A stretch of 64,000 bases of DNA from an uncultured Candidatus Saccharibacteria bacterium. GTDB lineage: Bacteria > Patescibacteriota > Minisyncoccia > Phycocordibacterales > G965230995. The position numbers were made by a program, and so were the translations under genes. The notes under the pieces are model-generated. The model worked only from the letters and a program-made list of their open reading frames with translations. It had not been told where the DNA came from and ran no database searches. How positions within the stretch are numbered: the first letter of the stretch is position 1; each line of letters begins with the position of its first letter. Shown here piece by piece: positions 14,281 through 63,757 of this stretch. The stretch is from contig OZ246398.1 in NCBI GenBank assembly GCA_965230995.1, positions 400,213 through 464,212 on the forward strand, in the 5' to 3' direction.

Positions 14281-15504
14281 TTAGGCAACACCCTTAAGCA
14301 AAGCGTTCTTTTCGAAGTTGACTCTCTGCAAACCGACTTCGGTTTTGTACTGGTCGACTTCCTCGTCAGCATCGTTGTCTTGAATGTTGGTTTCGAGCGT
14401 GGTGTCTCGACCATTCAAAGGACAATGCTTCAAGGTTGAAAGATCCAATACGACTCCCATACCGGCATACTGATTGTCGAACATCGGATGACGGACAATG
14501 TTCAAGGTACCGAATGAAGACTGGAATTTACGGATTTCTACACCGTAGGTCTTATCGGTTGGAACGACATACATCTTGCTCGTGGCAAAGCCTTCCAAAT
14601 AACCGAGCACGGTATTGCCACAGAAGAAGTACTTCTCGCTTGAACCATACTTAAAGGCATAGTTCTGCAAAAACGATCGGAATTCGGCTTCGGTTAAGCT
14701 CGAGCTTGATTCGTCTTGCACATTTCCAGCAGAGATGATGGATTCCAAGATACCTCCGGTTAAACGGAGAGGTTTACCGTCGGGACCGGTGACTTCTTTC
14801 TTTTCACCGAACCAATATGCGCGTTCGATTTTCTTGGCTTGTTCGATACCATGTTTTGCACGCAGGTATTTCAAGTCCGCACCCGGCGTACCGGACGGAT
14901 AGAGTTTCGAAGCGTTCTCGGTTTGAGTGACACCGAATTTTGTTTTGAAGATTTGGGTATAGTTGGTGACCTTCACGAGTTTAGTCGTGTTGGAATCTCC
15001 AGACTTTGATCCTTCCTCAAAAGCAGGACCGATAACCAACAGCCAGTCGTCATCATTGATGGCGGCCGCCGCAGTGGCACCGGCTCCACGAGTTACGGTG
15101 AGAGTATTCGTGGAATAATTAACATTGGTGACTCTCATGATTTCACCGGTACGAGTGTTTTTAATCAGATCGTACTTGGAGAAAATTGAGGCACCCGGAC
15201 TATCGACAACAATGTCGGTCGCACCTACGAGGTAGCCACCGCCGTTGTTAATTCGAGCCCAGACACCAGAGTACTGATCCTCATATTCAGTAAACTCTGG
15301 GTTATAGACGACTCTTTTTTGAAGAGCCATTCCTTTGAACTTGCCTCCACCGTCACCAATCTTTCCGATTTGGGTCAAGAAAGCAGTGAGCGGTGATTCG
15401 CCTGGTTCAAGAAGGAATATTTTGTCATCGACATCGGGAATACGCTGTGATTGTTCAATCGTCAGCGTGTTTCTCGTTCCGATGAGATGGGTTGGTTCAG
15501 ACAT
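14281..15504 (-). CDS. Major capsid protein (probably HK97-fold)
   Basis: 407 aa. Follows the scaffold-like gene and sits downstream of portal and terminase. The size and position are typical for an MCP. Confidence 0.55.
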   Translation of the reverse strand: MSEPTHLIGTRNTLTIEQSQRIPDVDDKIFLLEPGESPLTAFLTQIGKIGDGGGKFKGMALQKRVVYNPEFTEYEDQYSGVWARINNGGGYLVGATDIVVDSPGASIFSKYDLIKNTRTGEIMRVTNVNYSTNTLTVTRGAGATAAAAINDDDWLLVIGPAFEEGSKSGDSNTTKLVKVTNYTQIFKTKFGVTQTENASKLYPSGTPGADLKYLRAKHGIEQAKKIERAYWFGEKKEVTGPDGKPLRLTGGILESIISAGNVQDESSSSLTEAEFRSFLQNYAFKYGSSEKYFFCGNTVLGYLEGFATSKMYVVPTDKTYGVEIRKFQSSFGTLNIVRHPMFDNQYAGMGVVLDLSTLKHCPLNGRDTTLETNIQDNDADEEVDQYKTEVGLQRVNFEKNALLKGVA

Positions 15505-22588: not shown

Positions 22589-23150
22589 AATTTTTTAATT
22601 CTCAAATCTCTGGCACGCCCACATCCCTTGTATATTTTTTATTACCCGAACCCTTGAGCTCGGGCAGTGTGAGGTCGATTAACAAGATTGGATGTCGACC
22701 GTTATTGGGCGTGGCAGAGAGCTGGCAACAATCAAACAAAAAAGAGCTCGCGATTGATTACCACAAAAAGTGATAATTAATCGCAAGCTCTTAAACTTGG
22801 AATTCCTTTCAGGATGCCTCGTGAGGCATAACTCTATTTGATTGTTAATTGCATTATACTACTTTTCAAAAAACAGCACAATAGTTTTTTCTGTGCATAA
22901 TTTATTTACTCTCGAACGGGGATCATTTTACATAAAGCCCGCCACCAAGAGTAGAAACCTTTCGGTCTCAACGCACGAGTTTCCCCATACGACCATCCAA
23001 GGATCCCTGATGACGGGTTCTATATCTTGGATGGATTTTTTGCCATGCCTACCGCAGTGCGATAAGTTTAGGCGATTAAATTGTCACTTATTATTTTAAT
23101 ATAAAATGGGTAAAAACACCAGACCGAATTTATTTCCAGAAATGAAGAAG

Positions 23151-26221: not shown

Positions 26222-26416
26222 AAAACCCCGCAAACCATCCTTTGCGTATACAAACGCAAAAAGTCCTTTGCGAGGCTCTCTTGGATGGTTTTGCGACCAT
26301 GCCCTGATTCGGGTTTAGGCCTTATTCGGTTGTTTGCCTATTTTAGCAGGAAAAATCAATAATTGGCAGAATGTCTGTAAATATTGGCAATACTTGCCCA
26401 CAGTAGCTGGACTTGC

Positions 26417-26545
26417 ATTTACCGCTGTAATCCGTTATAATCCACTATATGGTGTATAGCGTTAAATCAATACGGCTCGACATTGTTTTTACCGCTGTAA
26501 TCCGTTATAATTAACTGTATAAACTATAGCGTTAAAATTATTAAT
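26417..26545 (+). repeat. Two tandem ~70-bp direct repeats (tttaccgctgtaatccgttataat...tatagcgttaaa) upstream of fic. Possible duplicated promoter/operator.
   Basis: Visible duplication at 26417-26470 and 26487-26545. Each copy contains a tataat. Confidence 0.5.
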
Positions 26546-28230: not shown

Positions 28231-29217
28231 ATGCCAAAAAAGAAATTCGATATTAAAAAAGCAAAATTTATTGACTTATTCGCTGGAATAGGAGGCTTTA
28301 GATATGCACTTGAATCCCATGGGTTAGAATGTGTCTATACTTCCGAATGGGACAAGTATGCACAGATGACTTATGAGGCCAATTTTGGAGAAACACCAGA
28401 TGGAGATATAACAAAAGTCGATGAGAAAAAAATTCCAAAACACAATATTATCTGTGCGGGATTTCCATGTCAGGCTTTTAGCATATCCGGTAAACAGCGA
28501 GGTTTTGAAGACACAAGAGGAACGCTGTTTTTTGATGTAGCGAGGATTGCTAAATATCATAAACCGGAAATTTTGTTTTTAGAGAATGTTAAAAATTTTG
28601 CAAAACACAACGATGGACAAACATTAGAGGTAATAAAGAAAACTCTTGATGAACTCAACTATAATGTTTTTTACAAAGTTTTGAATGCGAGTCAATATGG
28701 TGCTCCGACATCAAGGGAGAGAGTCTATATTATTTGTTTTAGAAAGGATTTGGGTGTAGATGATTTTTCTTTTCCCTTACCGGTCAATAAACCAGTAAAG
28801 CTCAAGGATTATCTTGTGGATGACAAGGAGTCGGCTTCATATGTAATAAAAAGAGACGATATAAAAATTAGAGAAAAAAATATAACAGCCGATATCTTCG
28901 GAAATTATTCACAAGGACCGATACGAATTGGCACAATAAATAATGGTGGCCAGGGTGAACGAATTTATAGTGACCTTGGACACGCCATAACCTTTTCAGC
29001 TTATGGAGGCGGTGCTGGTAGTAGAACGGGAGCTTATCTTATAAATGGTAAGGTTAGAAAACTCACGCCCAAGGAATGTTCAAGAGTGATGGGGTTTCCG
29101 GAAAACTTTAAAATACCAGTGAATAAAACCCAGGCTTACAAGCAATTTGGCAATAGCGTGGTTGTGCCAGTCTTGAAGCAAATTATGAAACAGATAATTT
29201 TAACAATAGAAAAATAA
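28231..29217 (+). CDS. DNA (cytosine-5)-methyltransferase
   Basis: Motif I LFAGIGGF, motif IV GFPCQAFS, ENV motif, and QRGFEDTRGTLFFD. Confidence 0.9.
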   Translation: MPKKKFDIKKAKFIDLFAGIGGFRYALESHGLECVYTSEWDKYAQMTYEANFGETPDGDITKVDEKKIPKHNIICAGFPCQAFSISGKQRGFEDTRGTLFFDVARIAKYHKPEILFLENVKNFAKHNDGQTLEVIKKTLDELNYNVFYKVLNASQYGAPTSRERVYIICFRKDLGVDDFSFPLPVNKPVKLKDYLVDDKESASYVIKRDDIKIREKNITADIFGNYSQGPIRIGTINNGGQGERIYSDLGHAITFSAYGGGAGSRTGAYLINGKVRKLTPKECSRVMGFPENFKIPVNKTQAYKQFGNSVVVPVLKQIMKQIILTIEK

Positions 29218-29218
29218 T

Positions 29219-29986
29219 ATGCCTATAAATAAAGATTTAAAGAAAGCGATCCTTTTAGGATCAAATACCGCTAGAGGCGGTTTTAGAAACGAAGATGATG
29301 TTGTCGAAAAATTTAACAACTGGAAAACCGACGAAGATGCTCAAAAGTGGTTAGAGACTATGGGTTATCCAATTAAGGAAATAGAGAGGGTTGAAGCAAT
29401 AAAATTGCACGGTTATAAAACCGATGTCCAAGTTCAAATTACAATTTATTTAAAAAAAGCAATTTCGGCTGAAAATATTTCAATAAAACTCGTCAGCAAT
29501 CCTCAAGGATTTAATCAGGTTGATAAAAGATGGGTAGAAAATTATATTGAAATGTGGGAAATTCCTTCTGATTTGGCGAAAGTGTTAAAGCAATTTACCG
29601 GCGAGATTCTCCCAGAAAATACAGACGGATTACGAGATCCTCGAAGACTATTTTTGGATGAAATGAGCAAAGCAGTACAAAATAAAATAATTGATTTTTT
29701 TACAAAAAATAAAATTCTCGTAGTTTCGGATATTCTAAAAGGAAGAGGAAAATTTTCAGCCGGTTGGATGCTTGTAGTGTTAAAATCAAAAGACGAAAGC
29801 AGATGGGTATTAAAATCAATAAACCACGCCATGAATGTGTTCGCGGAAGGCGAAGTTAGAATTACTCCACAAGGTAGCTTAAAAATTGGTAAAATTGGCA
29901 TGCAAAGAAAAGGTGGAGATGGTGGTCGAGATTCCGCAAAGATGTTGCAATTTAAGATAAATCCAGTTGAGCTCTTTAAAGATTAG
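29219..29986 (+). CDS. Putative type II restriction endonuclease partnered with the C5-MTase
   Basis: Its start (29219) lies 2 bp after the MTase stop (29217), placing it in the same operon. It has no MTase motifs. A possible PD-(D/E)xK-like segment is D...ISIK. Confidence 0.4.
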   Translation: MPINKDLKKAILLGSNTARGGFRNEDDVVEKFNNWKTDEDAQKWLETMGYPIKEIERVEAIKLHGYKTDVQVQITIYLKKAISAENISIKLVSNPQGFNQVDKRWVENYIEMWEIPSDLAKVLKQFTGEILPENTDGLRDPRRLFLDEMSKAVQNKIIDFFTKNKILVVSDILKGRGKFSAGWMLVVLKSKDESRWVLKSINHAMNVFAEGEVRITPQGSLKIGKIGMQRKGGDGGRDSAKMLQFKINPVELFKD

Positions 29987-30828: not shown

Positions 30829-33804
30829 ATGAGTAATCTATACCAAAGAGGATCGGAGTGGCGAAAGTGGGATTTGCATGTTCACACCCCAAAATCAATA
30901 ATTCAAGAATATGGCGGAGATACAAAAGCAGTATGGGACGCATTTATTTTAAAAATAGCATCTTTACCACCCGAAATTAAAGTGATTGCAGTCACGGACT
31001 ATTTATTTTGTGACGGGTATGAATATTTACTTACAAGACGAGGTGAGTTTACAAATATTGAACTATTAATTCCAAATATAGAATTTAGACTTAATACTTT
31101 TAGTGGGACGGCCAACAACACTCGTAGACATAATTTTCATGTACTATTTGATCCAACCGTTAGTGTGCAAGATATTAGGGATCAGCTTTTAAATTGTCTA
31201 TCGAGTGGGTATAAAATAGAAGATAATACTAAATGGGAACAAACACCAACGAGACGATCGTTGGAAGATCTCGGCAAACAAATTAAGGCGGCGGCTCCGA
31301 CAGGAAACACTATACATAGCAAAACTGATCTTGAAGTAGGATTTGATAATATTACCTACGACAGAGATACAATTTATGAATTATTAAGCAAAAATTGTTT
31401 TACTGGAAAATTTGTAACTGCCATAGGTTATTCTGAATGGGATCATTCTCGATGGGATCAGTCAGCTGTTGAAAAGAGAGACTTGATAAATTCTGCGAAC
31501 TTTTGTCTTACATCTCTTGATGACCCATCTAAAATAAGTGAGAATCGCCAAGACCTCGAAACAAACAAATTAAACAGTATTGTTTTACATTCATCTGATG
31601 CACACAAACTTGATCGTGTCGGTCAGTCAATGCTCTGGGTTAAAGCTGATCCGACATTCGCTGGTCTCAAACAGGTACTAAATGAACCAGAAGCCCGTGT
31701 TTTTATTGGCGAGACACCTCCCAACCTTAAACCAGATCACAAAGTAATAAAAAAAATATCTATTCCACTATCTAATGGATGGTTTGCCAATGACTTTGAA
31801 TTAGAATTAAATCGGGACTTAATAACAGTTATTGGTGGCCGTGGTTCAGGTAAATCTGCCCTAGCGGAGGCGATTGCCTATGGCGCTGGAAGTAAAGATA
31901 ACAGTGATGATGCATTTTTAAAGAAAGCTTCGAAACATAAAAATTCTATAGCTGGAACTAAAATTAAAATTGACTGGGCAGATGGATCGTCTACAGAATT
32001 TGAAGTCGGGAAACTTACAGAGGATCAAGGGCTTGTTCAGTATTTACCGCAAGGAGCTGTGGAAGATCTATGCTCACACCGTAATAGTGAAAAGTTACAG
32101 AAACAAATCGAGAATGTTATTTTTCAAAAGCTTGATGACACCGAACGAATGGGTGCTTCAGATTTTGATGAACTCAGGACACGAATACTTAGTGGCTTTA
32201 AATATGAAAAAGAACAGGTTGTCGAAAAAATCCATGACATCAATCATAAGATAGGTGAGCTAGTTTCTGTACTCCGGAATCTACCGGAAAAGGAAAAACA
32301 GCTCGGCGAGAAAAAAGCCGAACTTGAAAGATTAAACAAAAGTTTGCCAGAATTGCCAGCTGAAGATAAAAAAGGACAAGAAGAACTTGCCAAACTCGCA
32401 GAAGTTAAGAAAAAGTATGAGGCCAAAATAGTTGAGCTTCAAGGTAAACTAAATAAAATTAGTGATGTTGAGACTAAAGTTAAAATTTTTAAATCTAAAA
32501 TTAAAGAATTTAAAGATGAAATTGATGTTTTGCTTACTGGGCTAGGTCTATCGGAGTCAGATGTATTTACCGTTACATTTAATGAAGACGCTATAAAAAA
32601 ATCTCTTGATTCAGAGAAGAATGAAATTGCCGAACATCTAAAAACTATTAAACAAGGAAAGAAACGGGAGGTCGCCCAGCTTCTTTCTATTGAAGAATCT
32701 GAATTACCTTTTGATAACTTGCAGGACTTGAACAAAGGTATAGAAGATAAACAGAAAGAGACGAGAGCTTTTGAAACTACAAAATTAAAATATCAGCAAC
32801 AAAAGAAAACTATTTTAACGGTTGAGAGTACAATTAAGGCAATTGATGGAGAAATTACTCGAATAAAGTCAGAATCAACCCCGGAAAAAGAACGACTGGA
32901 GAAAGAACGCTTTGGAGCTTATAGCAGTTATTTTGAGCTACTTAAAAGCGAAAAATCTAAAATGGAAGAGTTGTATAAACCACTACAAGATTCACTTTTA
33001 GCTGGAACAGATACTGATAAAAAATTGGTTTTTGAAGCACAAATTAATTATCGACTTGAACTTCATAATAAGGCAGGTCTCGATATTATTGACAGGTCAC
33101 GCAAAGGAAACTTCCGAGAAATTGATAGCTTAAAAAAGGTTCTCAGTGAGCACTCAGATGAATTTATAAGGCACGAGTTTGATCTGACTATTCTTGAAAC
33201 AAAATTAAAAGCGACTCTGGATAATTTTTTAACATTTGAGGAAAATGAAATTCTTATTGAAGATCAGCTAAGAGAAAATCACAATCTTGAAGACTTTTAT
33301 AATTGGTTATTTGATCCTACTTATTTTGAGATTATTTCATCGCTTAAGTTTGACGATACCGATCTTTATTTGCTCTCACCTGGACAGAAAGGAATTATCC
33401 TTCTGATTTTATATCTTAAGATTGATGAGGATGATTACAGGCCATTAATAATCGACCAGCCTGAGGAGAATCTTGATAATCTTTCCGTATATAGGGATTT
33501 AATTGAGTATTTCAGAGACAGAAAGCAGTTCAGGCAAATTATAATGGTTACGCATAATCCCAACCTTGTTGTAAATACTGATGCAGAACAAATTGTTGTC
33601 GCAAATTATAATGGCAAGCGAACGCCAAAACTCGAATATTGTTCGGGCTCTCTTGAGGATCAGGCAAGAAAAATACCCGATGTAGAAATTGAAAAATTCG
33701 AAGATGGGATAATTGAACAAGTTTGCAATATACTTGAGGGTGGTGAACCGGCATTTGCAAAGAGAAAAAAGAAATATCAAATTTCAATAAGAAGTAAAAT
33801 TTAA
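30829..33804 (+). CDS. PHP-domain fused to an ABC/SMC-like ATPase with a long coiled-coil insert ('Ppl'-like antiphage protein)
   Basis: N-terminal PHP motif WDLHVHTPKS, Walker A VIGGRGSGKSALAE, a coiled coil of roughly 250 aa, ABC signature LSPGQKGIILL, and Walker B/D-loop LIIDQPEENLD. Confidence 0.6.
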   Translation: MSNLYQRGSEWRKWDLHVHTPKSIIQEYGGDTKAVWDAFILKIASLPPEIKVIAVTDYLFCDGYEYLLTRRGEFTNIELLIPNIEFRLNTFSGTANNTRRHNFHVLFDPTVSVQDIRDQLLNCLSSGYKIEDNTKWEQTPTRRSLEDLGKQIKAAAPTGNTIHSKTDLEVGFDNITYDRDTIYELLSKNCFTGKFVTAIGYSEWDHSRWDQSAVEKRDLINSANFCLTSLDDPSKISENRQDLETNKLNSIVLHSSDAHKLDRVGQSMLWVKADPTFAGLKQVLNEPEARVFIGETPPNLKPDHKVIKKISIPLSNGWFANDFELELNRDLITVIGGRGSGKSALAEAIAYGAGSKDNSDDAFLKKASKHKNSIAGTKIKIDWADGSSTEFEVGKLTEDQGLVQYLPQGAVEDLCSHRNSEKLQKQIENVIFQKLDDTERMGASDFDELRTRILSGFKYEKEQVVEKIHDINHKIGELVSVLRNLPEKEKQLGEKKAELERLNKSLPELPAEDKKGQEELAKLAEVKKKYEAKIVELQGKLNKISDVETKVKIFKSKIKEFKDEIDVLLTGLGLSESDVFTVTFNEDAIKKSLDSEKNEIAEHLKTIKQGKKREVAQLLSIEESELPFDNLQDLNKGIEDKQKETRAFETTKLKYQQQKKTILTVESTIKAIDGEITRIKSESTPEKERLEKERFGAYSSYFELLKSEKSKMEELYKPLQDSLLAGTDTDKKLVFEAQINYRLELHNKAGLDIIDRSRKGNFREIDSLKKVLSEHSDEFIRHEFDLTILETKLKATLDNFLTFEENEILIEDQLRENHNLEDFYNWLFDPTYFEIISSLKFDDTDLYLLSPGQKGIILLILYLKIDEDDYRPLIIDQPEENLDNLSVYRDLIEYFRDRKQFRQIIMVTHNPNLVVNTDAEQIVVANYNGKRTPKLEYCSGSLEDQARKIPDVEIEKFEDGIIEQVCNILEGGEPAFAKRKKKYQISIRSKI

Positions 33805-33805
33805 T

Positions 33806-34555
33806 ATGTCAGAATACTACACAGCACAAAGGGTAAAAGGTTTATATGATTCAAAGGTTACCGAACCTTTTAAATTATCACGATCAAAGATTGATCTGTT
33901 CTTAAATTGTCCAAGATGTTTTTATTACGATCGCAAACTTGGTGTCGGCCGTCCACCGGGTTTTCCTTTTGCCCTCAATTCGGCAGTTGACCATCTCTTA
34001 AAACTTGAGTTTGATATTCATCGTGCAAATGGCACGAAACATCCTCTTATAGAAAAGTATGGAGTTGATGCTCGTCCGGTTGCCCACGAGGATTTGGATA
34101 AATGGCGACATAACTTTACCGGCATTCAACACTTGCACGAACTTACAAACTTTTTGATATTTGGTGCGATTGATGATCTTTGGATAAATTCTAAGGGTGA
34201 ATACATTGTTGTTGATTATAAGTCCACTTCAAAAGATGAAGATATCACGGAGTTGAATAAAGATTGGCAAATCGGCTATAAGAGACAAATGGAGGTTTAT
34301 CAATGGTTACTTCGCCAAAATGGATACAAGGTTTCTAATACTGGATATTTTGTTTACTGCAACGGACAGACTGATCGGAAGGCATTTGATGGAAAGCTTG
34401 AGTTTGATATCACATTGATTCCTTATGAGGGCGATGATTCGTGGGTAGAAAAAACTATCATTCAGGCACACAATTGTTTAAATAGTGAAAAAATTCCCGA
34501 AGCCAGTTTAGAATGTGATTACTGTAATTATGTTCGGGCAATAAATAGCAAATAA
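33806..34555 (+). CDS. Cas4/RecB-like PD-(D/E)xK nuclease with a 4-Cys cluster
   Basis: N-terminal CPRC, catalytic GAIDD...EYIVVDYKS (D...D/E-x-K), and C-terminal CDYC. Starts 2 bp after the ATPase stop. Confidence 0.65.
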   Translation: MSEYYTAQRVKGLYDSKVTEPFKLSRSKIDLFLNCPRCFYYDRKLGVGRPPGFPFALNSAVDHLLKLEFDIHRANGTKHPLIEKYGVDARPVAHEDLDKWRHNFTGIQHLHELTNFLIFGAIDDLWINSKGEYIVVDYKSTSKDEDITELNKDWQIGYKRQMEVYQWLLRQNGYKVSNTGYFVYCNGQTDRKAFDGKLEFDITLIPYEGDDSWVEKTIIQAHNCLNSEKIPEASLECDYCNYVRAINSK

Positions 34556-36691: not shown

Positions 36692-37414
36692 ATGTCATTT
36701 GGCTCATATCTAAAAAAACAGAGAGAAACCAACAAATGGACGGCCAAGGATATCGCTGATCGCCTTGGTTTTTCGGCCAGTTATGTCAGTCAGTTGGAAA
36801 ACGATGCCAGACTCCCTTCTCAGAAGCAGTTGGGGCTTTTGGCTAAGGCTTACGAGGTCGACGAGGACGAATTAAAAAAACAGTGGACCGAATCAAAGAT
36901 CCATAAGGTCAGCATTTCTACAAACTATAAATTCAACATCAAAGACGCTGGCGAGAAGCGTGTTGAAGAAATGACTCACAAACTGGAAGCAGGTTTGGAG
37001 GAATTAAAAAAGACGATCACAGCCGATGAAGTGGCACATTACAAAATGCCACTGTTCAATACCATTCCAGTGGAAGATCTCGATCTGCATCTCAAACATG
37101 CGGAGGAATTTATTTTTATTCCTAAGAACGGGATTGTTCGTGATCACCGTATATTCGGCATTCGTGTTTCCGATGTTCAATTTCCGGAGGCAGGTATAAT
37201 CGAAGGCGACCTGATTATGCTTGATGCGGACATTGAGGCAAGTGACGGAGACATTGTAGTGTTGTCTACGCCAGACGGTCTGGTCATGACTTACTTCAAA
37301 AAGCGTGGTGACTTTTTGGAGATTGCGACCAGCAATAAAGGTTTTCAAAAAAGTTATCCGGACAAGAGTGTCCGATTAATAGGTCGGCTAATTTATCACA
37401 TAAAAAAATACTAA
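36692..37414 (+). CDS. cI: CI-like repressor: N-terminal XRE HTH plus a C-terminal S24 (LexA-like) peptidase domain
   Basis: HTH WTAKDIADRLGFSASYVSQLE, and a C-terminal ...GIRVSDVQF...GIIEGDLIMLD...DGDIVVL... beta-barrel region. Confidence 0.6.
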   Translation: MSFGSYLKKQRETNKWTAKDIADRLGFSASYVSQLENDARLPSQKQLGLLAKAYEVDEDELKKQWTESKIHKVSISTNYKFNIKDAGEKRVEEMTHKLEAGLEELKKTITADEVAHYKMPLFNTIPVEDLDLHLKHAEEFIFIPKNGIVRDHRIFGIRVSDVQFPEAGIIEGDLIMLDADIEASDGDIVVLSTPDGLVMTYFKKRGDFLEIATSNKGFQKSYPDKSVRLIGRLIYHIKKY

Positions 37415-37459: not shown

Positions 37460-39166
37460 ATGAGTACAAATTATTTAATTTACGGCCGTGTTTCTACCTC
37501 TCGTCAGGCCGAACGAGAATTAAGTATTCCGGCACAGGTCAAAGCGTGCCAAAAGTATGGAATGGATCATCATTGGAATTTACTTCCCGATGGCATCTAC
37601 GAGGAAAAAGGCGAATCCGCAAGAACGACTGATCGTCCACAGCTCCAGAAAATGCTTCATCGAGCAAAGACGGACAGCAAGGTTGATGTCATCTTAGTCC
37701 ACAAGCTTGATCGTATGTGTCGCAATGTGGCTGATTACGCCGCCATTAAGATGATGCTTAAAAAGCACGATGCCAAACTCGTTTCAGTGGTTGAACAATT
37801 CGATGAGTCCTTTTCCGGTGAGCTGGTTGAGAACATCATGGCATCGATTGCTCAATGGACTTCACAAAACATCAGCTGGGAGGTCAGGAAGGGTCTTAAA
37901 GAGGCCGTAGAGCGTGGCAGGTTCCCGGGGTATGCACCAATTGGGTATACGAACGATAAAAAGACCAAGTCTCTTATTATTGATAATATTCGAGCCCCTT
38001 ATATAAAACTGGCTTTTGAACTTTACGCCACCGGCAAGTATTCATACGATTCTTTGTCTGCCGAACTTAATAAGCGGGGTCTAAAAAGTAAATCCGGCAA
38101 ACATGTTAATCGCAAATCAATTGAGCATTTTCTTTGCAATCCAATTTACTATGGTTTGATAAAAACTCGATCAGCTACTTGTCAGGCAAACTTTCCGCCT
38201 CTAATTTCTAAAAAACTTTTTGATGATGTTCAGGAGGTAGTCCAACAGCACAATCATTATGCAGACCGTACTCGCAAGCACTCGTATCCTATGGCAGGGT
38301 TTATGAGATGTGCTGTGTGTGGGTCTACGCTCTGCGGACAGATGCAAAAGGGTCATCTTTATTATTCTTGTACTCACTGGCAGGACAAAAACTGTACTGA
38401 ACGCAAATACATGCGATGGGAGGTTGTTGAGGAACAGGTTGCAAACCATTTATCACGGGTTCATTTACCTGATAAGTTTAAGAAGGTACTCGATTCATAT
38501 TTCCAATATTTTGCAAAAGAACGACTCGAACAGGAGGATAAAGAACGCAAGAGTCTCAAGCGTGAGCTTATAAGAGTTCAACAGCAGATTCGCAATATCG
38601 TTGTGGATCGTTCTCAGCGTATCATTGACGCCGATGTCTTTATAAAGATTCAGGACGAGCTTCTTAAGGAGAAGGAAATGTATCAGGATCGCTTGGGTGT
38701 ACTTGAGGGCAAATCTGATAAATTCGTGCAGAAATTTAATGAGTTACTGGACTTCACGGATCATGCCGACAAGGTGTTTAACACCAGCTCAATGCATCAA
38801 AAACGCACTCTGATGAAGCTTTGTTTTGAGGGGTTCACTGTCAGTAATCAAAAACTGACGCCGATATGGACGCCAGTCTTTGATGTTCTTATGGATTTGC
38901 AAGTTTCCAAACTCGAACCACCGAAACCGTCAAAGGGCTTGAAAACCCTTGCAGTTTCTAAGGTTCAAAGTTGGAAATCTGGCGGAAGAGGAGGGATTCG
39001 AACCCTCGATGGGCTTTCGCCCATACCAGTTTTCGAAACTGGGACATTCAGCCTCTCTGCCACTCTTCCGTATGTAGATAGCCTATCACTTTTTGCATTT
39101 TTTACAAAAAATGTTATATTATTCCAGTCGGTTTGGTGTCTACCAAATCCACGGCCTTATCGTTAA
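37460..39166 (+). CDS. Large serine recombinase (phage integrase)
   Basis: Catalytic motif IYGRVSTSRQ, a recombinase domain, and the zinc ribbon CAVCGSTLCGQ...YYSCTHW...C. 568 aa. Confidence 0.85.
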   Translation: MSTNYLIYGRVSTSRQAERELSIPAQVKACQKYGMDHHWNLLPDGIYEEKGESARTTDRPQLQKMLHRAKTDSKVDVILVHKLDRMCRNVADYAAIKMMLKKHDAKLVSVVEQFDESFSGELVENIMASIAQWTSQNISWEVRKGLKEAVERGRFPGYAPIGYTNDKKTKSLIIDNIRAPYIKLAFELYATGKYSYDSLSAELNKRGLKSKSGKHVNRKSIEHFLCNPIYYGLIKTRSATCQANFPPLISKKLFDDVQEVVQQHNHYADRTRKHSYPMAGFMRCAVCGSTLCGQMQKGHLYYSCTHWQDKNCTERKYMRWEVVEEQVANHLSRVHLPDKFKKVLDSYFQYFAKERLEQEDKERKSLKRELIRVQQQIRNIVVDRSQRIIDADVFIKIQDELLKEKEMYQDRLGVLEGKSDKFVQKFNELLDFTDHADKVFNTSSMHQKRTLMKLCFEGFTVSNQKLTPIWTPVFDVLMDLQVSKLEPPKPSKGLKTLAVSKVQSWKSGGRGGIRTLDGLSPIPVFETGTFSLSATLPYVDSLSLFAFFTKNVILFQSVWCLPNPRPYR

Positions 39167-39233: not shown

Positions 39234-39308
39234 GGCCTTATCGTCTAACGGTCAGGACACGGCCTTTTCAAGGCTGTAATCGGGGTTCGATTCCCCGTAA
39301 GGTCACCA
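39234..39308 (+). tRNA. tRNA-Glu (anticodon UUC), with CCA encoded
   Basis: Cloverleaf: acceptor ggcctta/taaggtc, anticodon stem cggcc/ggctg with loop uuUUCaa, and T-arm cggggTTCGAttccccg. Confidence 0.8.
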
Positions 39309-39312
39309 GTAC

Positions 39313-39343
39313 AAAAAAGAGCACACGTTAGTGTGCCTTTTTT
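39313..39343 (+). terminator. Rho-independent terminator after tRNA-Glu
   Basis: aaaaaagaGCACACgttaGTGTGCctttttt. Confidence 0.7.
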
Positions 39344-39346
39344 GTT

Positions 39347-39482
39347 TGGTGACCTTAAGCAAGCAAATAATTTTGCTTGCGTCGGGGAATCGAAAAGGTT
39401 TCCTTTATTTATGAAAAGCTTTGCTTTGAATAAATAGGAAACCTATACTGTCCATGTAATGGAAGATTCCCCGTAAGGTCAC
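39347..39482. repeat. tRNA-Glu-associated composite. It comprises an inverted copy of the tRNA 3' half with a 24-nt hairpin insertion (39347-39394), the shared 20-mer atactgtccatgtaatggaa (39445-39464), and an 18-bp direct copy of the tRNA 3' end (39465-39482).
   Basis: Direct sequence comparison with tRNA 39289-39308. The same architecture follows tRNA-Lys. Confidence 0.75.
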
Positions 39483-39552
39483 TAAAAGGAGATGTATTCT
39501 TGGTGTATTTTAGGGTGTTTTAACAAGTTCTCAGAGCTGATATAATTAAATT

Positions 39553-60473: not shown

Positions 60474-60710
60474 ATGTTACCCGTAATTAATGTAATTCTA
60501 GACAAGATAGTCAATCCGATAATTTGGGTAATGTTTACGGTAGCTTTGATTGTCTTTCTGTGGGGTATATTCAAATTCCTCTCGAGCGACGAAGGTGGGG
60601 AAGGACGAACAAAAGGAAAAGATTCAATGGTTTGGGGAATTGTAGGGTTTCTAATTATGGTTGGAGTCTGGGGAATAATCGCATTCGTAAAAGAAACACT
60701 AAAGCTTTAA
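60474..60710 (+). CDS. TrbC/VirB2-like pilin paralog 7 (lacks a signal peptide)
   Basis: Core ...ALIVFLWGIFKFLSSDEGGEGRTKGKDSMVWGIVGFLIMVGVWGII... Confidence 0.45.
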   Translation: MLPVINVILDKIVNPIIWVMFTVALIVFLWGIFKFLSSDEGGEGRTKGKDSMVWGIVGFLIMVGVWGIIAFVKETLKL

Positions 60711-60773
60711 AATAAAAAAAAGACAGGGGCGGTCCGCGCGTTGCGGTCCGCCCCTTCGTCGTACCAGCCTTCC

Positions 60774-61388
60774 TTATTGGCTGTTGTTTATAGGTTCAAC
60801 GATTTCGATCTTGATCTCTGCCCCGCTGGGCGAGAGACCCTTCACCCAGAGTAGCGTGAAGGTGCCTTTCGGTTTGTGTTTACCTTCCGTCTTTTCCTCG
60901 TCAACACCGAAGTTCTCGTACCATACGACTTCCTCGGAGACATGCTCCGAGATGAAATCGTTGACACGAATCAGGGCCCTACCCTTGTTAGAGTAAACCT
61001 TGAAGGGGCGTCCGTCGATGTCGAACGGCTCAGAGATCTCTCCTTGGGCTACCGTGACAGTTCTCGATGCGATAACTCTCACGTTCTCGGTGTCAACCTT
61101 ATTGGCAACCTTCGCCTGTACAGCGGTGTTGGTGGTACGAGGGCGCATGTCGTTCATCGCGCCGTTCGTGAACACTCCACTGCATGTTGAGATAAGGCAG
61201 ACGAGCGACAGCAACGCCAGGTACCACAGAATGCTGTGCGATGCCTTCGTGGTCCCCTTCGCAGAGGTAGCCGTTCCCGGAGTGGCTGATCCGCCAGTAC
61301 CCGAGCCCTTTTTCTTCTTGAAGAAGATCACAATCGCCGCTACCACAAACACTGCCAGAACCCCGATCATAACCTGTCTGACTTCCAT
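60774..61388 (-). CDS. GC-rich membrane protein. One TM helix, a Gly/Thr-rich linker, then a second TM helix.
   Basis: ORF with biased codon usage. Sits upstream of the SPFH gene on the same strand. Confidence 0.45.
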   Translation of the reverse strand: MEVRQVMIGVLAVFVVAAIVIFFKKKKGSGTGGSATPGTATSAKGTTKASHSILWYLALLSLVCLISTCSGVFTNGAMNDMRPRTTNTAVQAKVANKVDTENVRVIASRTVTVAQGEISEPFDIDGRPFKVYSNKGRALIRVNDFISEHVSEEVVWYENFGVDEEKTEGKHKPKGTFTLLWVKGLSPSGAEIKIEIVEPINNSQ

Positions 61389-61500
61389 AGAACTCCTCCT
61401 GTTTCCATATTATTATATCATACATACAGTTTATATGTCAAGTACGAAAAAGCGCCGGGGTTTAGCCGGCGCCGTGAATGGCAAGTGTCTGTCGGGGGTC

Positions 61501-62496
61501 CTAATCCCCGTCAGGAACTATCTTTCCACCCGGTGCGTACGTAATGTGAGTCGCATCGGAGAGCCCGATCATCGCTGCTGCAACGGTCTCCGGGTTCTTG
61601 AGCACTGCGTGGATGCGCTCCACCTGGCTCGCCTCAGCCTGTGCGATGCCTTGTGTCTCCTCAACCTTGGCCTCAGCCAAACCCTTGGCCTCCTTGACCC
61701 TGATCGCAGCAAGCTTATCCTCCTTTTCGATCTCTGGTCCTTGACGAACTCTCGCTGCATCTGCTTGTTGATGTGAAGCAGCAAGGTCGGTGAAGCTCTG
61801 ACGCAGAGCCTTCTCTGATGCCGAGTCGTCCCTCTTGGTAATTGTGGCATCAGTTACCTTTAGGGCGAAGCTAGAGTTGTTGAGAGACTGTTGAAGGCCA
61901 ACCTTTCCAGCTTCACTTACTGTTTCGACCTGGGCATCAGTCATTGACTTGACCAATATTTCCAGGTGGCTGGTAACACTTTCCTTCACCAAGAAGATGA
62001 TCTTTGCTTCAGCTTCAGGTTGGGGAAGAATATTGCCATCTGTTGTGAGCAAGTGCTGTTGGATGAAATCAATACAGGTTGGGTTTTCTGTATCGATTGA
62101 CACCATGACACGAAAGTCCAGGTCCTTCTGTCTGCGTGTATGGCTAGCTGTCAAACTGCCATCAGGGTTTAGGATGTTTATTTCAACATCCTTCTTCTGA
62201 CCCACTAAGGTGAAGACCAGTGGCAATGTTCCCTTGACCTTGAAACAAGGATTCAACCCGTACATGATACGAATTGGATTTGCCCAGTGCATCTTCGCCA
62301 CGTGACGGTGGTACATTCCCGGTAACACTATGCCCATAAAGGCTGTGTTTACGAGGGGGTTGTATACACCACGAGGTACATTGTTTACGAAGACAACACT
62401 GAGTGTCCCGCCGTTTACTTCATGATACGACGAGACAATCAGAAGGACGACAAACGCGATGGCAATGAGGATTCCGAGCGTGGTAGTGGTGAACAT
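61501..62496 (-). CDS. SPFH/band-7 (stomatin/flotillin-like) domain protein with a C-terminal Ala/Glu-rich coiled coil
   Basis: N-terminal TM helix, an SPFH-like core, and an AEAKVEETQGIAQAEASQVE helical tail. Confidence 0.65.
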   Translation of the reverse strand: MFTTTTLGILIAIAFVVLLIVSSYHEVNGGTLSVVFVNNVPRGVYNPLVNTAFMGIVLPGMYHRHVAKMHWANPIRIMYGLNPCFKVKGTLPLVFTLVGQKKDVEINILNPDGSLTASHTRRQKDLDFRVMVSIDTENPTCIDFIQQHLLTTDGNILPQPEAEAKIIFLVKESVTSHLEILVKSMTDAQVETVSEAGKVGLQQSLNNSSFALKVTDATITKRDDSASEKALRQSFTDLAASHQQADAARVRQGPEIEKEDKLAAIRVKEAKGLAEAKVEETQGIAQAEASQVERIHAVLKNPETVAAAMIGLSDATHITYAPGGKIVPDGD

Positions 62497-62712
62497 GGTA
62501 GCTCTCCTTGCGTTACGGTTGGCTTGTGTGTAGAACAGTTCAGGCTATATTATATTACATAATTGTGTAAAAGTCAAGCAAAAAGAGAGCTATAAATAAC
62601 GATATTTTTGCCATATTTATTTCCATTGTTTTTGTCGATTATTAATATTCCTCTTAAATTCTTTGTTTTTTTGCGTAAATATGATAAAGTTTTCTTTGTT
62701 GATTTTAAAAAT

Positions 62713-62785
62713 GCGCTCATAGCTCAGCTGGTAGAGCAGTCGCCTCTTAAGCGAACGGTCGTAGGTTCGATTCCTACTGGGCGCA
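62713..62785 (+). tRNA. tRNA-Lys (anticodon CUU)
   Basis: D-arm UAGCUCAGCUGGUAGAGCA, anticodon loop cuCUUaa, T-arm guaggTTCGAUUccuac, acceptor gcgctca/tgggcgc. Confidence 0.8.
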
Positions 62786-62799
62786 CATCGCAATAATAG

Positions 62800-62834
62800 A
62801 AAAACACCTCTGATTTTAAAGGTGTTTTTCTTTT
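62800..62834 (+). terminator. Rho-independent terminator after tRNA-Lys
   Basis: aaaaaCACCtctgattttaaaGGTGtttttctttt. Confidence 0.75.
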
Positions 62835-62928
62835 GCGATGTGCGAGCCGGACCGTAGCGGAGCGGAGGGAGGCGGGGTCGCGACTTTCTGCCGAGAACAC
62901 GAGGCAGAAAAGTAGTGACCACAATGTT

Positions 62929-63062
62929 TGTGCGCCCAAGCAAGTCCGGGGGACTTGCGTGTAGGAATCGAAAGGCTTTTGAGCTGATTTTAGAGTTCGA
63001 GGAACGAGAACGAATAAAATCACCAAAAGGCATACTGTCCATGTAATGGAAGATTCCTACTG
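62929..63062. repeat. tRNA-Lys-associated composite. It comprises an inverted copy of the tRNA 3' half with a 21-nt hairpin insertion (62929-62972), the shared 20-mer atactgtccatgtaatggaa (63032-63051), and an 11-bp direct copy of the tRNA 3' end (63052-63062).
   Basis: Direct comparison with tRNA-Lys 62766-62787. Parallels the tRNA-Glu locus. Confidence 0.75.
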
Positions 63063-63127
63063 AATGAAAGTGACTTGTCCTTCGTTCACAAAAGACGAAA
63101 GTTGTGACCACAAGCAAAAAATAAATT

Positions 63128-63547
63128 TTGTATTTGCATTTTGATATTATTGGGAATAGAATTAATATGTATCGAGACAAACCGACTCGACAGTTTGTAC
63201 ACCTAGAAGTGGAGGAGGTCATGACTACTAGTGCTAGGGTTGACATGAGTAGGTTTGAGAGTGTACTCAAGCCACAATTGGGCCCGCTGTGGGGCAGGGC
63301 CTTGACTATCTTCGAAGGTTACGGTCCGGCCCTGAGTTGGTGTGTGACCAAGTCTCTTGATCTTGCCGTTGATCGGGGAAAAGTGGAGGAGGTGCTAGGT
63401 ATTCTGGAAAGACACTACCGGGACCATCTCTCGTTTCAACACCCTGACATTCGTGGCGCGATCGAAGGGGCCTCTGGTGACCTCACCAACACTATGTTCA
63501 GGCAGATCTTTGAGGTGGTGCTTAAGAAGGCACCTTGTGCGGGGTGA
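63128..63547 (+). CDS. Hypothetical protein in a moderately GC-rich region
   Basis: ORF of 139 aa. No motif recognised. Confidence 0.3.
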   Translation: MYLHFDIIGNRINMYRDKPTRQFVHLEVEEVMTTSARVDMSRFESVLKPQLGPLWGRALTIFEGYGPALSWCVTKSLDLAVDRGKVEEVLGILERHYRDHLSFQHPDIRGAIEGASGDLTNTMFRQIFEVVLKKAPCAG

Positions 63548-63757
63548 GGCATCGCCTCGCCTCGCTATGTTGACCAGTCTTCGGTGACTTCACCATCGGC
63601 TGGTCTTCTTTTTTTGCTAGGGTAAATCCTATGCAACGAAGGTCGCGACCTCGCCTCGGTCTGTTGCAAAATTAAAATAAACAATATAACTGGACAAAAT
63701 TAAGAAAATGTTATAGTGTAATTTGCGAACAGTTCTCAAAATAGAAGGGAGAACGCC

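Follow-up and report, generated by a model that had tools for sequence, protein, structure and literature searches.

Small structured modules behind Patescibacteria tRNA genes: a possible new family of non-coding mobile elements with arms matched to each tRNA

The closest described systems to the locus treated here carry copies of their own target or recur at many tRNA genes. In the attP(+) site of the CTX phage, which is used by XerCD, and in the attC sites of integrons, two inverted copies of the target site, with a spacer between them, pair to give a duplex that imitates the target in the chromosome, with a bulge or an extra hairpin in one strand. Mobile archaeal tRNA introns of the Thermoproteales place related short sequences in many tRNA genes, the T-loop included (59/60 is among their positions), and pairing with exon sequence is required. 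We describe here a short module that lies behind tRNA-Glu, and again behind tRNA-Lys, in a stretch of 64,000 nt (the window) of an uncultured Candidatus Saccharibacteria bacterium (assembly GCA_965230995.1, contig OZ246398.1, positions 400,213 to 464,212). The family to which it belongs is apparently undescribed and a new kind of element, and no published description of it was found in Rfam 15 or in the full-text literature. We think that it is a family of small mobile elements (~130–180 nt, about 140), non-coding and non-autonomous, that settle in the tRNA genes of Patescibacteria, a reading to which we give a probability of roughly 0.45. Its mode of movement, and whether RNA or single-stranded DNA (ssDNA) is the active form, we infer from the sequence and the predicted fold.

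As in tRNA-targeting integrative elements and derivatives of them that are not autonomous, namely cis-mobilizable elements (CIMEs) and miniature integrative elements, the 3' part of a tRNA gene is involved, the tRNA is kept intact, direct repeats flank the unit, tandem copies occur and no protein is encoded. Unlike in those elements, no integrase partner was found for the module, its interior is a covarying single-strand fold, it holds both an antisense and a sense copy of the target, and one core stands behind at least 18 tRNAs with its arms re-matched to each. We know of no att arm that re-matches to each tRNA around a shared core. Inverted target copies that fold into a target-like duplex, with a bulge or extra hairpin in one strand, are common to the module and to attP(+) and attC; the target of the module, however, is the T-stem/acceptor segment of a tRNA and not dif or attI, it has essentially no cargo, no link to Xer or IntI was found for it, and its nature as ssDNA is putative. 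In contrast to the archaeal introns, the module is bacterial, shows no evident bulge-helix-bulge motif and follows a tRNA that is complete without splicing.

The unit behind tRNA-Glu is composed of the following parts:

39234..39308, plus strand: intact tRNA-Glu(UUC), called by ARAGORN and by Rfam (tRNA, 61.4 bits)
39289-39306: DR1, upstream copy of the direct repeat, that is, the last 18–20 nt of tRNA-Glu, G57 to C74
39313..39345, no strand assigned: bidirectional intrinsic terminator, with its stem-loop at 39321-39336
39347..39357, plus strand: a', antisense of the acceptor 3' strand, discriminator and CCA (TGGTGACCTTA), pairing in the fold with 39474-39484
39359..39380, plus strand: hairpin H1 (GCAAGCAAA/TTTGCTTGC), then GT (predicted fold; covariation in 65 modules)
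39383..39394, plus strand: t' and the T-loop complement (CGGGG AATC GAA), whose first 9 nt pair with 39465-39473 (helix P1)
39396..39444, plus strand: H2, a hairpin of 49 nt
39445..39464, plus strand: the 20-mer ATACTGTCCATGTAATGGAA, made of the junction AUACUG, hairpin H3 (39451-39463) and an A
39465..39482, plus strand: DR2, sense copy of tRNA-Glu G57 to C74

The terminator is the centre of a long palindrome between the tRNA 3' end and the antisense arm. Within that arm, TGGTGACCTTA at 39347-39357 complements TAAGGTCACCA exactly, CGGGGAATCGAA at 39383-39394 does the same for TTCGATTCCCCG (the T-loop and the 3' strand of the T-stem), and H1 with its GT is positioned exactly between a' and t'. 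H2 consists of a lower stem, a 5' bulge, an A/T-rich middle stem, a tandem GA/GA internal loop and an apical stem. The 18-nt direct repeat (39289-39306 and 39465-39482) has a chance expectation of 0.03, and the 20-mer matches the window twice (39445-39464 and 63032-63051) as against no match in 100 shuffles. The original prediction, made from this DNA alone, had described the tRNA-Glu, its terminator and an inverted copy of the tRNA 3' half, all of which are confirmed where it placed them. The same holds for the hairpin that it placed exactly between the antisense T-stem and acceptor segments (39359-39380 plus GT), for the 20-mer (39445-39464) and for the tRNA 3' end repeated directly over 18 nt (39465-39482). 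Absent from it were H2 (39396-39444), the hairpin within the 20-mer and the complete architecture at tRNA-Lys, where the arms are re-matched to that tRNA:

62713..62786, plus strand: tRNA-Lys(CUU), host of the second module (ARAGORN, Rfam)
62800..62844, no strand assigned: terminator hairpin at 62800-62831, followed by the initial part of the antisense arm (62833-62844), which complements the tRNA-Lys end and trailer
62845..62928, plus strand: unrelated small element of a second family (…GGGTCGCGA-hairpin-GTGACCACAA) inside the antisense arm, flanked by TGTGCG
62929-62938, plus strand: a' (TGTGCGCCCA)
62940-62958, plus strand: H1, then GT
62961-62972, plus strand: t' and the T-loop complement (GTAGGAATCGAA)
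62973..63051, plus strand: H2, up to 63031, and the 20-mer with H3, 63032-63051
63052..63062, plus strand: DR2 of tRNA-Lys (GATTCCTACTG), ending after 2 nt of the acceptor strand

The covariance model described below matches this second module at 62961-63062. The element that splits its antisense arm has TGTGCG on either side, which resembles a target-site duplication. It belongs to a second small structured family, absent from Rfam, with the consensus …GGAG-hairpin-CACGAGC.AGGGTCG(C/T)GA-hairpin-…(C/G)TGACCACAA, found in the window at 62845-62928 and ~63060-63117 and also at L009, L014, L017, L041 and L056 (loci fetched from other sequences are cited by such numbers). The GC content is 0.45–0.57 at 60600-62500 and 63200-63700, on both sides of tRNA-Lys, and ~0.30–0.36 elsewhere; foreign DNA may have integrated on both sides of this tRNA, possibly with the downstream copy (cut at 63062) as attachment site.

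Beyond the two loci in the window, where the original prediction had seen the 20-mer, the layout recurs at 88 further loci, and every locus that bears an organism name belongs to Patescibacteria. The exact 20-mer is present in 59 metagenome stretches and in 29 stretches of a species-representative genome collection, all of these from metagenome-assembled genomes of Patescibacteria, or candidate phyla radiation, with Paceibacterota, Saccharibacteria, Taylorbacteria, Nomurabacteria and Minisyncoccia among the lineages; neither module nor 20-mer had a match in viral contigs, INPHARED phages or PLSDB plasmids. A covariance model built from 44 cores finds 126 copies in 96 fetched loci and, in the window, only the two copies. 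A tRNA gene on the same strand was identified for 60 of 92 copies, its end typically 112–145 nt before the 20-mer, and the host tRNAs are of at least 18 species: Ala, Ser(gga, tga), Arg(gcg, tct), Glu, Asn, Lys(ttt, ctt), Pro, Leu(taa, gag, tag), Thr, Gln, Gly, Tyr and His. The order is constant, with the tRNA followed by a hairpin (usually a terminator), a', H1, t' plus the T-loop complement, H2, the 20-mer and a sense copy starting from G57; the Ser(gga), Ser(tga) and Gln copies lack H1. Among 42 compact copies, the local tRNA is matched by the antisense arms with median exact runs of 11.5 nt for acceptor/trailer and 12 nt for the T-arm, as compared with ~5–6 nt in shuffled controls, and the exact run of the direct repeat has a median of 10 nt (range 4–19, 42 modules). 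The antisense arm complements the genomic trailer rather than the mature CCA end, and for this reason a primer-binding site of retroviral type was rejected.

The evidence for movement comes from sites, cores and copy arrangement. Empty-site alleles, proposed as a check in the original prediction, were found for Leu(taa) at L053 and for Arg(gcg) at L062; together with the further loci of the 20-mer, they remove both of the refutations that the prediction had allowed for. The syntenic cluster Cys-Leu(taa)-Lys(ctt)-Leu(tag) has both filled and empty sites: after Leu(taa), L053 is empty, with a spacer of 59 nt, and L069, L013 and L018 are filled, and after Lys(ctt) the site is filled in L053, L013 and L018. 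For a strict comparison of filled and empty states, exact-protein matching of S51, FtsZ and P0001 yielded no close relatives, and the S51 homologues closest in sequence share 69% identity and show no synteny. Of 35 modules with a nearest core of at least 90% identity in another locus, 19 have that core behind a different tRNA, and near-identical cores pair Lys(ttt) with Leu(taa) (97%), Tyr with Arg(tct) (96%) and Gln with Arg(gcg) (93%). In an alignment of seven copies H1 and H2–H3 are conserved, and a', t', the direct copy and the terminator all differ. Tandem, nested and truncated copies exist among the fetched loci; in L059 and L027 a complete copy adjoins the tRNA and a truncated or more diverged copy lies further off, which is the order that one insertion after another at the tRNA would leave. 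Many downstream sense copies are cut short, many are followed by a native-looking terminator (L011, L015, L019, L059, L064) and about three quarters have 1–2 extra nt exactly between positions 59 and 60. The upstream tRNA copy, which is necessarily intact, makes a nearly perfect palindrome with the antisense arm, running through the trailer.

The simplest reading of these arrangements is that the element would enter at the T-loop, at the junction of positions 59 and 60, and supply a replacement 3' end together with the hairpin or terminator, leaving a complete tRNA upstream; the old 3' end would be moved downstream and become the direct copy. Further entries would then pile up as tandem or nested copies. 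The core would move among tRNA genes with its arms rebuilt from, or selected to match, each new target, presumably through a single-stranded intermediate (RNA or possibly ssDNA) and with the help of a factor encoded elsewhere, for example a recombinase, a nuclease or a reverse transcriptase. Alternatively, a unit that carries both arms may be inserted after the native terminator. If the modules are indeed mobile, a large share of the tRNA genes of many Patescibacteria would carry a structured element that is not annotated, which bears on the annotation of minimal genomes and on tRNA expression. The shared core with arms re-matched to at least 18 tRNAs would imply that target sequence is copied, or selected, into a mobile element, which is of interest for programmable insertion, and the modules would offer a new marker of insertion history at tRNA loci, including the integration of islands that leaves orphan copies behind.

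How densely these genes are occupied suggests another view. Within 450 nt downstream, a same-strand copy was found for 81 of 124 tRNA genes with enough flank in the fetched loci, and for 2 of the 3 tRNA genes of the window; as the loci were found through the exact 20-mer, this density and the invariance of the 20-mer are both biased upward. The module may be a cis-acting host RNA of tRNA transcription units, in which the antisense arm of read-through RNA would compete with the 5' strands of the tRNA itself or pair with the sense copy. Such a two-state structure could serve termination, 3' processing, quality control or tRNA sensing, with the core binding a protein present across the lineage. 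The module is always on the tRNA strand and directly behind the tRNA, about two thirds of the tRNA genes in the loci carry it, its G·U bias and tandem G·A loops indicate RNA, the 20-mer does not vary in distinct Patescibacteria lineages, and the fit of the antisense arm to the genomic trailer instead of the mature CCA end also agrees with this function. However, sites of one syntenic cluster may be filled or empty, orphan copies persist far from tRNAs behind island cargo, and tandem, nested and truncated copies occur. Moreover, a terminator usually separates tRNA and module, H1 or a' is absent in some copies, and near-identical cores are shared by different tRNAs. We consider a host function unlikely as the explanation of the family, though a serious alternative.

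The fold gives information on the form in which the module is active. Folding of the region, which had also been suggested as a check, gives for the whole tRNA-Glu unit a single closed, multi-branched structure of −64.1 kcal/mol (z = −11.7), whose helices are a'/a (11 bp), H1, t'AAUC/GAUUt (9 bp), H2 and H3; the minus-strand fold of the same unit is weaker. In the single-stranded, tRNA-sense form with the arms paired, the main helix duplicates the T-stem/acceptor 3' strand of the particular host tRNA. In a set of 56 non-redundant cores the outer helix of H2 occurs in 27 different versions (mean z of −4.5 versus shuffles) while its tandem GA/GA internal loop is retained, and RNAalifold finds compensatory double changes at 15 of the 17 consensus pairs of H2 and H3. 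H1, whose distance from t' is fixed, is a hairpin of 9 bp that has many different stem sequences, and H3 covaries in the diverged copies (stems UCCA/UGGA, GAAAC/GUUUC, UUCC/GGAA, AAUC/GAUU and GACCA/UGGUC) around a constant UGUAA loop. Because stems covary and loops are fixed, the signature is that of a folded single strand and not of duplex arms for protein binding. The three covarying hairpins, taken with a 20-mer that is invariant across distinct Patescibacteria lineages, in loci retrieved by that same 20-mer, go against the claim that the element is decayed. As regards the strand, the summed stability of H2 is 155 kcal/mol better for the plus strand, with 33 G·U pairs versus 19, and H1 has 24 versus 9; an RNA from the minus strand is disfavoured on stability and G·U counts. 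We think that the module probably acts as a folded single strand in the tRNA sense, with RNA favoured by the modelled structures. If so, it would be a testable RNA, for which a fold is defined and an invariant 20-mer as well as a covariance model are available, in a lineage with almost no known non-coding RNA biology.

Some details of this fold recall introns. The a'-t'-AAUC-GAA series complements one continuous stretch, the junction UUC|GAUU-T stem-acceptor, in the manner of a group I internal guide, and nothing else in the module is intron-like; the GAA of the series is invariant and unpaired, and the H2/H3 three-way junction is compact with invariant joining nucleotides. The module might then be an intron-like or ribozyme element that follows the logic of the group I internal guide sequence (P1 plus P10) and whose three-way junction cleaves or ligates at the T-loop, or else a tRNA-minihelix decoy for a tRNA-binding enzyme or toxin. 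Besides the guide-like complement across the T-loop junction, the unpaired GAA and the compact junction, this idea is favoured by the fact that group I introns are common in tRNA genes of Patescibacteria (PMC13011429). The paper that reports them is the nearest to our subject and does not mention the module (PMC13011429). We regard such an origin as quite unlikely, given that the core is far too small for group I or II, even at E ≤ 10 there is no match to a ribozyme or intron family, splicing is unneeded with an upstream tRNA that is already complete, and the downstream 'exon' is often truncated.

The searches for known RNA families point the same way. Rfam holds no family for the module, either in a scan of the window at gathering thresholds or in permissive scans of both loci and six orphan loci (E ≤ 10 or E ≤ 0.5), where only tRNAs and an unrelated LOOT RNA were matched. 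Neither window locus matched the small self-cleaving ribozymes in Rfam (hammerhead, hairpin, twister, twister-sister, pistol, hatchet and hepatitis delta virus), and readings of the core by eye as a hammerhead, a hairpin ribozyme or a K-turn were discarded when the motifs did not fit. A group I or II intron was rejected (no Rfam match at E ≤ 10 or E ≤ 0.5, a core of only ~75 nt, an upstream tRNA that is complete and scores normally), and so was a tRNA or tRNA-like gene, as ARAGORN and Rfam call the upstream tRNA alone and the fold keeps just the topology of the acceptor/T-stem helix. A T-box riboswitch has no Rfam match either, and the downstream genes are unrelated or other tRNAs.

With group I and II introns (internal guide sequences and exon-binding sites) and with the bridge RNA of IS110 the module shares structured segments interrupted by short target-complementary segments, guide-like segments that flank a hairpin and a complement that spans the insertion junction. 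It differs from these guide-carrying elements in that it lacks a recombinase gene and any known type of ribozyme core, the target gene is uninterrupted, and its two guides pair both with the same strand and with the element's own sense copy. In the module a' and t' flank H1 and match the target, but both pair with one and the same strand and with the internal sense copy; an IS110-type element is not supported, the genes in the flanks being housekeeping genes and not a DEDD/serine recombinase. Bacterial MITEs (miniature transposable elements with inverted repeats) and repeats of the repetitive extragenic palindromic type are likewise short, non-coding, highly structured, multi-copy and mobilised in trans. 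The module, unlike them, has no fixed terminal inverted repeats; its arms are target-derived and site-specific, with strict specificity for tRNA and orientation. A MITE was rejected on these grounds, the inverted arms being tRNA-specific and the direct-repeat length variable, with no family-wide terminal inverted repeats and no fixed target-site duplication.

The original prediction had linked the direct repeat to the attL/attR of tyrosine-integrase elements, and suggested that the enclosed DNA may be a decayed or miniature integrative element. An insertion-like unit that is bounded by direct repeats and accretes in tandem, as att sites do, does stand; the integrase scar is not supported. All-against-all clustering of the open reading frames in the flanks of the 92 copies gave no recombinase or protein family in common, only housekeeping synteny, with IF-2, RbfA, S20, RuvA, HU, RNase Y and TsaD as neighbours, and among ~75 informative loci none has a large element with module halves at its borders. 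Of the copies with enough upstream sequence, about 17 are orphans, with no tRNA within 1.5 kb. The DNA upstream of the orphans carries conflict-system cargo (SMEK/ABC-3C, DUF3800, HNH) and terminates in a conserved arm, not of the module, and an altered block similar to a tRNA 3' end:

L005 2289-2345 and L008 4893-4955: conserved arm of ~60 nt (TCCAAATCCCCCAC…CCAATTAAA), with similar blocks at L031, L071, L023 and L034

This arm, followed by an altered tRNA-Asn-like 3' block (…GTTCG…CCAAGCGAGCC), forms the right end of defence-gene islands and is probably the attR side of an island family that targets tRNA-Asn. A reading of the orphans' upstream blocks as intron-containing tRNA-Asn (PMC13011429) was rejected, no tRNA-Asn 5' exon or T-arm being present within 1.5 kb. 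Our interpretation is that large islands integrated into the tRNA and carried its old 3' end, terminator and module away. These genuine islands lack module-like arms, which argues against the module as a generic att arm. A CIME-like leftover of a tyrosine integrase (attL plus attR with the interior deleted), perhaps mobilised in trans by a related integrase, would account for the direct repeat of the tRNA 3' end and for the tandem accretion beside tRNAs, and the tRNAs concerned do serve as integration sites of real islands in these genomes. Nevertheless we hold it to be very unlikely, since no recombinase is linked to any of ~90 copies and no large island has module halves as borders, the hairpin stems covary around fixed loops as in a folded single strand, the arms are re-matched to 18 tRNAs round one core, and the arms of the genuine islands differ.

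A bolder version of our reading is that a protein-less core of ~100 nt, of structured RNA or ssDNA, targets the universal T-loop while its antisense and sense guide arms are rewritten from each target. Transposition would then be effectively self-reprogramming, with a core that is catalytic or that recruits a host reverse transcriptase, nuclease or ligase; we regard this version as rather unlikely. Several points weigh against mobility in general. We can name no mechanism that rewrites a', t' and the direct copy while H1 lies between a' and t'. No excised form, transposition intermediate or mobilising enzyme was seen. Gene conversion between old modules might, in principle, account for near-identical cores behind different tRNAs, and the very high occupancy in streamlined genomes with strict tRNA co-orientation would also fit host function. 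To these must be added the retrieval bias mentioned above and the fact that G·T and G·A pairs form in ssDNA too, so that RNA is not proven. As a partial idea, only the 5-nt t' is both internal and variable, T-stems differ by few changes, and the T-loop complement and GA(N) are near-universal. Synthesis that folds back at the terminator, together with a switch of strand at the palindromic TTCGAA, might give rise to the arms.

A purely passive origin has also been considered, in which replication would switch template at the terminator and at the TTCGAA palindromes of the T-loop and leave functionless direct-inverted-direct triplications. The layout is of this kind, the turn-round points coincide with a hairpin and with the palindromic T-loop, and the 59/60 junction is imprecise. 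The conserved, covarying H1/H2/H3 core and its recurrence in 88 loci of many lineages are left unexplained, which largely refutes this origin and makes it highly improbable, although template switching may describe how the tRNA-specific arms are generated.

Other observations concern the surroundings of the modules. In L064 (1-230, minus strand) a tRNA-Ser(tga) has a direct-inverted-direct layout with arms of 18–20 nt around a different core of ~105 nt and without H1, and the native terminator is placed after the downstream copy; a general process may therefore give rise to the layout. Partial 5' copies of tRNA-Glu lie 80–210 nt upstream of the gene, with 11 nt in the window (39153-39163) and 33–34 nt in relatives (L004 1358-1390, L075 1474-1507, L079 1894-1927). 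The interval in L079 contains an H2/H3-like core (GTACTG CTTC TGTAA GAAG) and a duplicated leader, an arrangement that suggests a mirror-image variant entering the anticodon loop. Furthermore, a family of proteins of 220–230 aa, not annotated, with an N-terminal helix-turn-helix and the motif LGIGIYVGEGSK, is encoded no more than ~2 kb from modules at L010, L021, L068, L079 and L087, in L021 just upstream of tRNA-Gly. Pfam gives it only a weak HTH_7 match, and the motif is reminiscent of LAGLIDADG homing endonucleases.

The tRNA-Glu module is adjoined in the window by a prophage (~1-39166), which uses a large serine recombinase, as the original prediction said. Its genes also encode a beta-helix protein, a LysM protein and a Dam methylase, and it includes:

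14281-15504: SU10-type major capsid protein
22954-23074, minus strand: full-length LOOT RNA (RF03000), 76.5 bits
25172-26221: reverse transcriptase gene (RVT_1)
28231-29986: C5 methylase plus R.HinP1I
30829-34555: SMC-like ATPase plus PD-(D/E)XK nuclease
36692-37414: cI-like repressor
37460-39166: large serine recombinase, reading frame of 568 aa, antisense through tRNA-Ser(cga) (38980-39069)

By the reverse transcriptase gene no pair of template and variable repeats typical of a diversity-generating retroelement was found, and such a retroelement of the prophage was rejected as mobiliser of the modules. The gene is followed by two 54-nt direct repeats (26413-26536) and a Fic gene. The reading frame of the serine recombinase stops inside the 11-nt partial 5' copy of tRNA-Glu (39153-39163), so that the prophage junction probably lies within the 3' end of the integrase gene.

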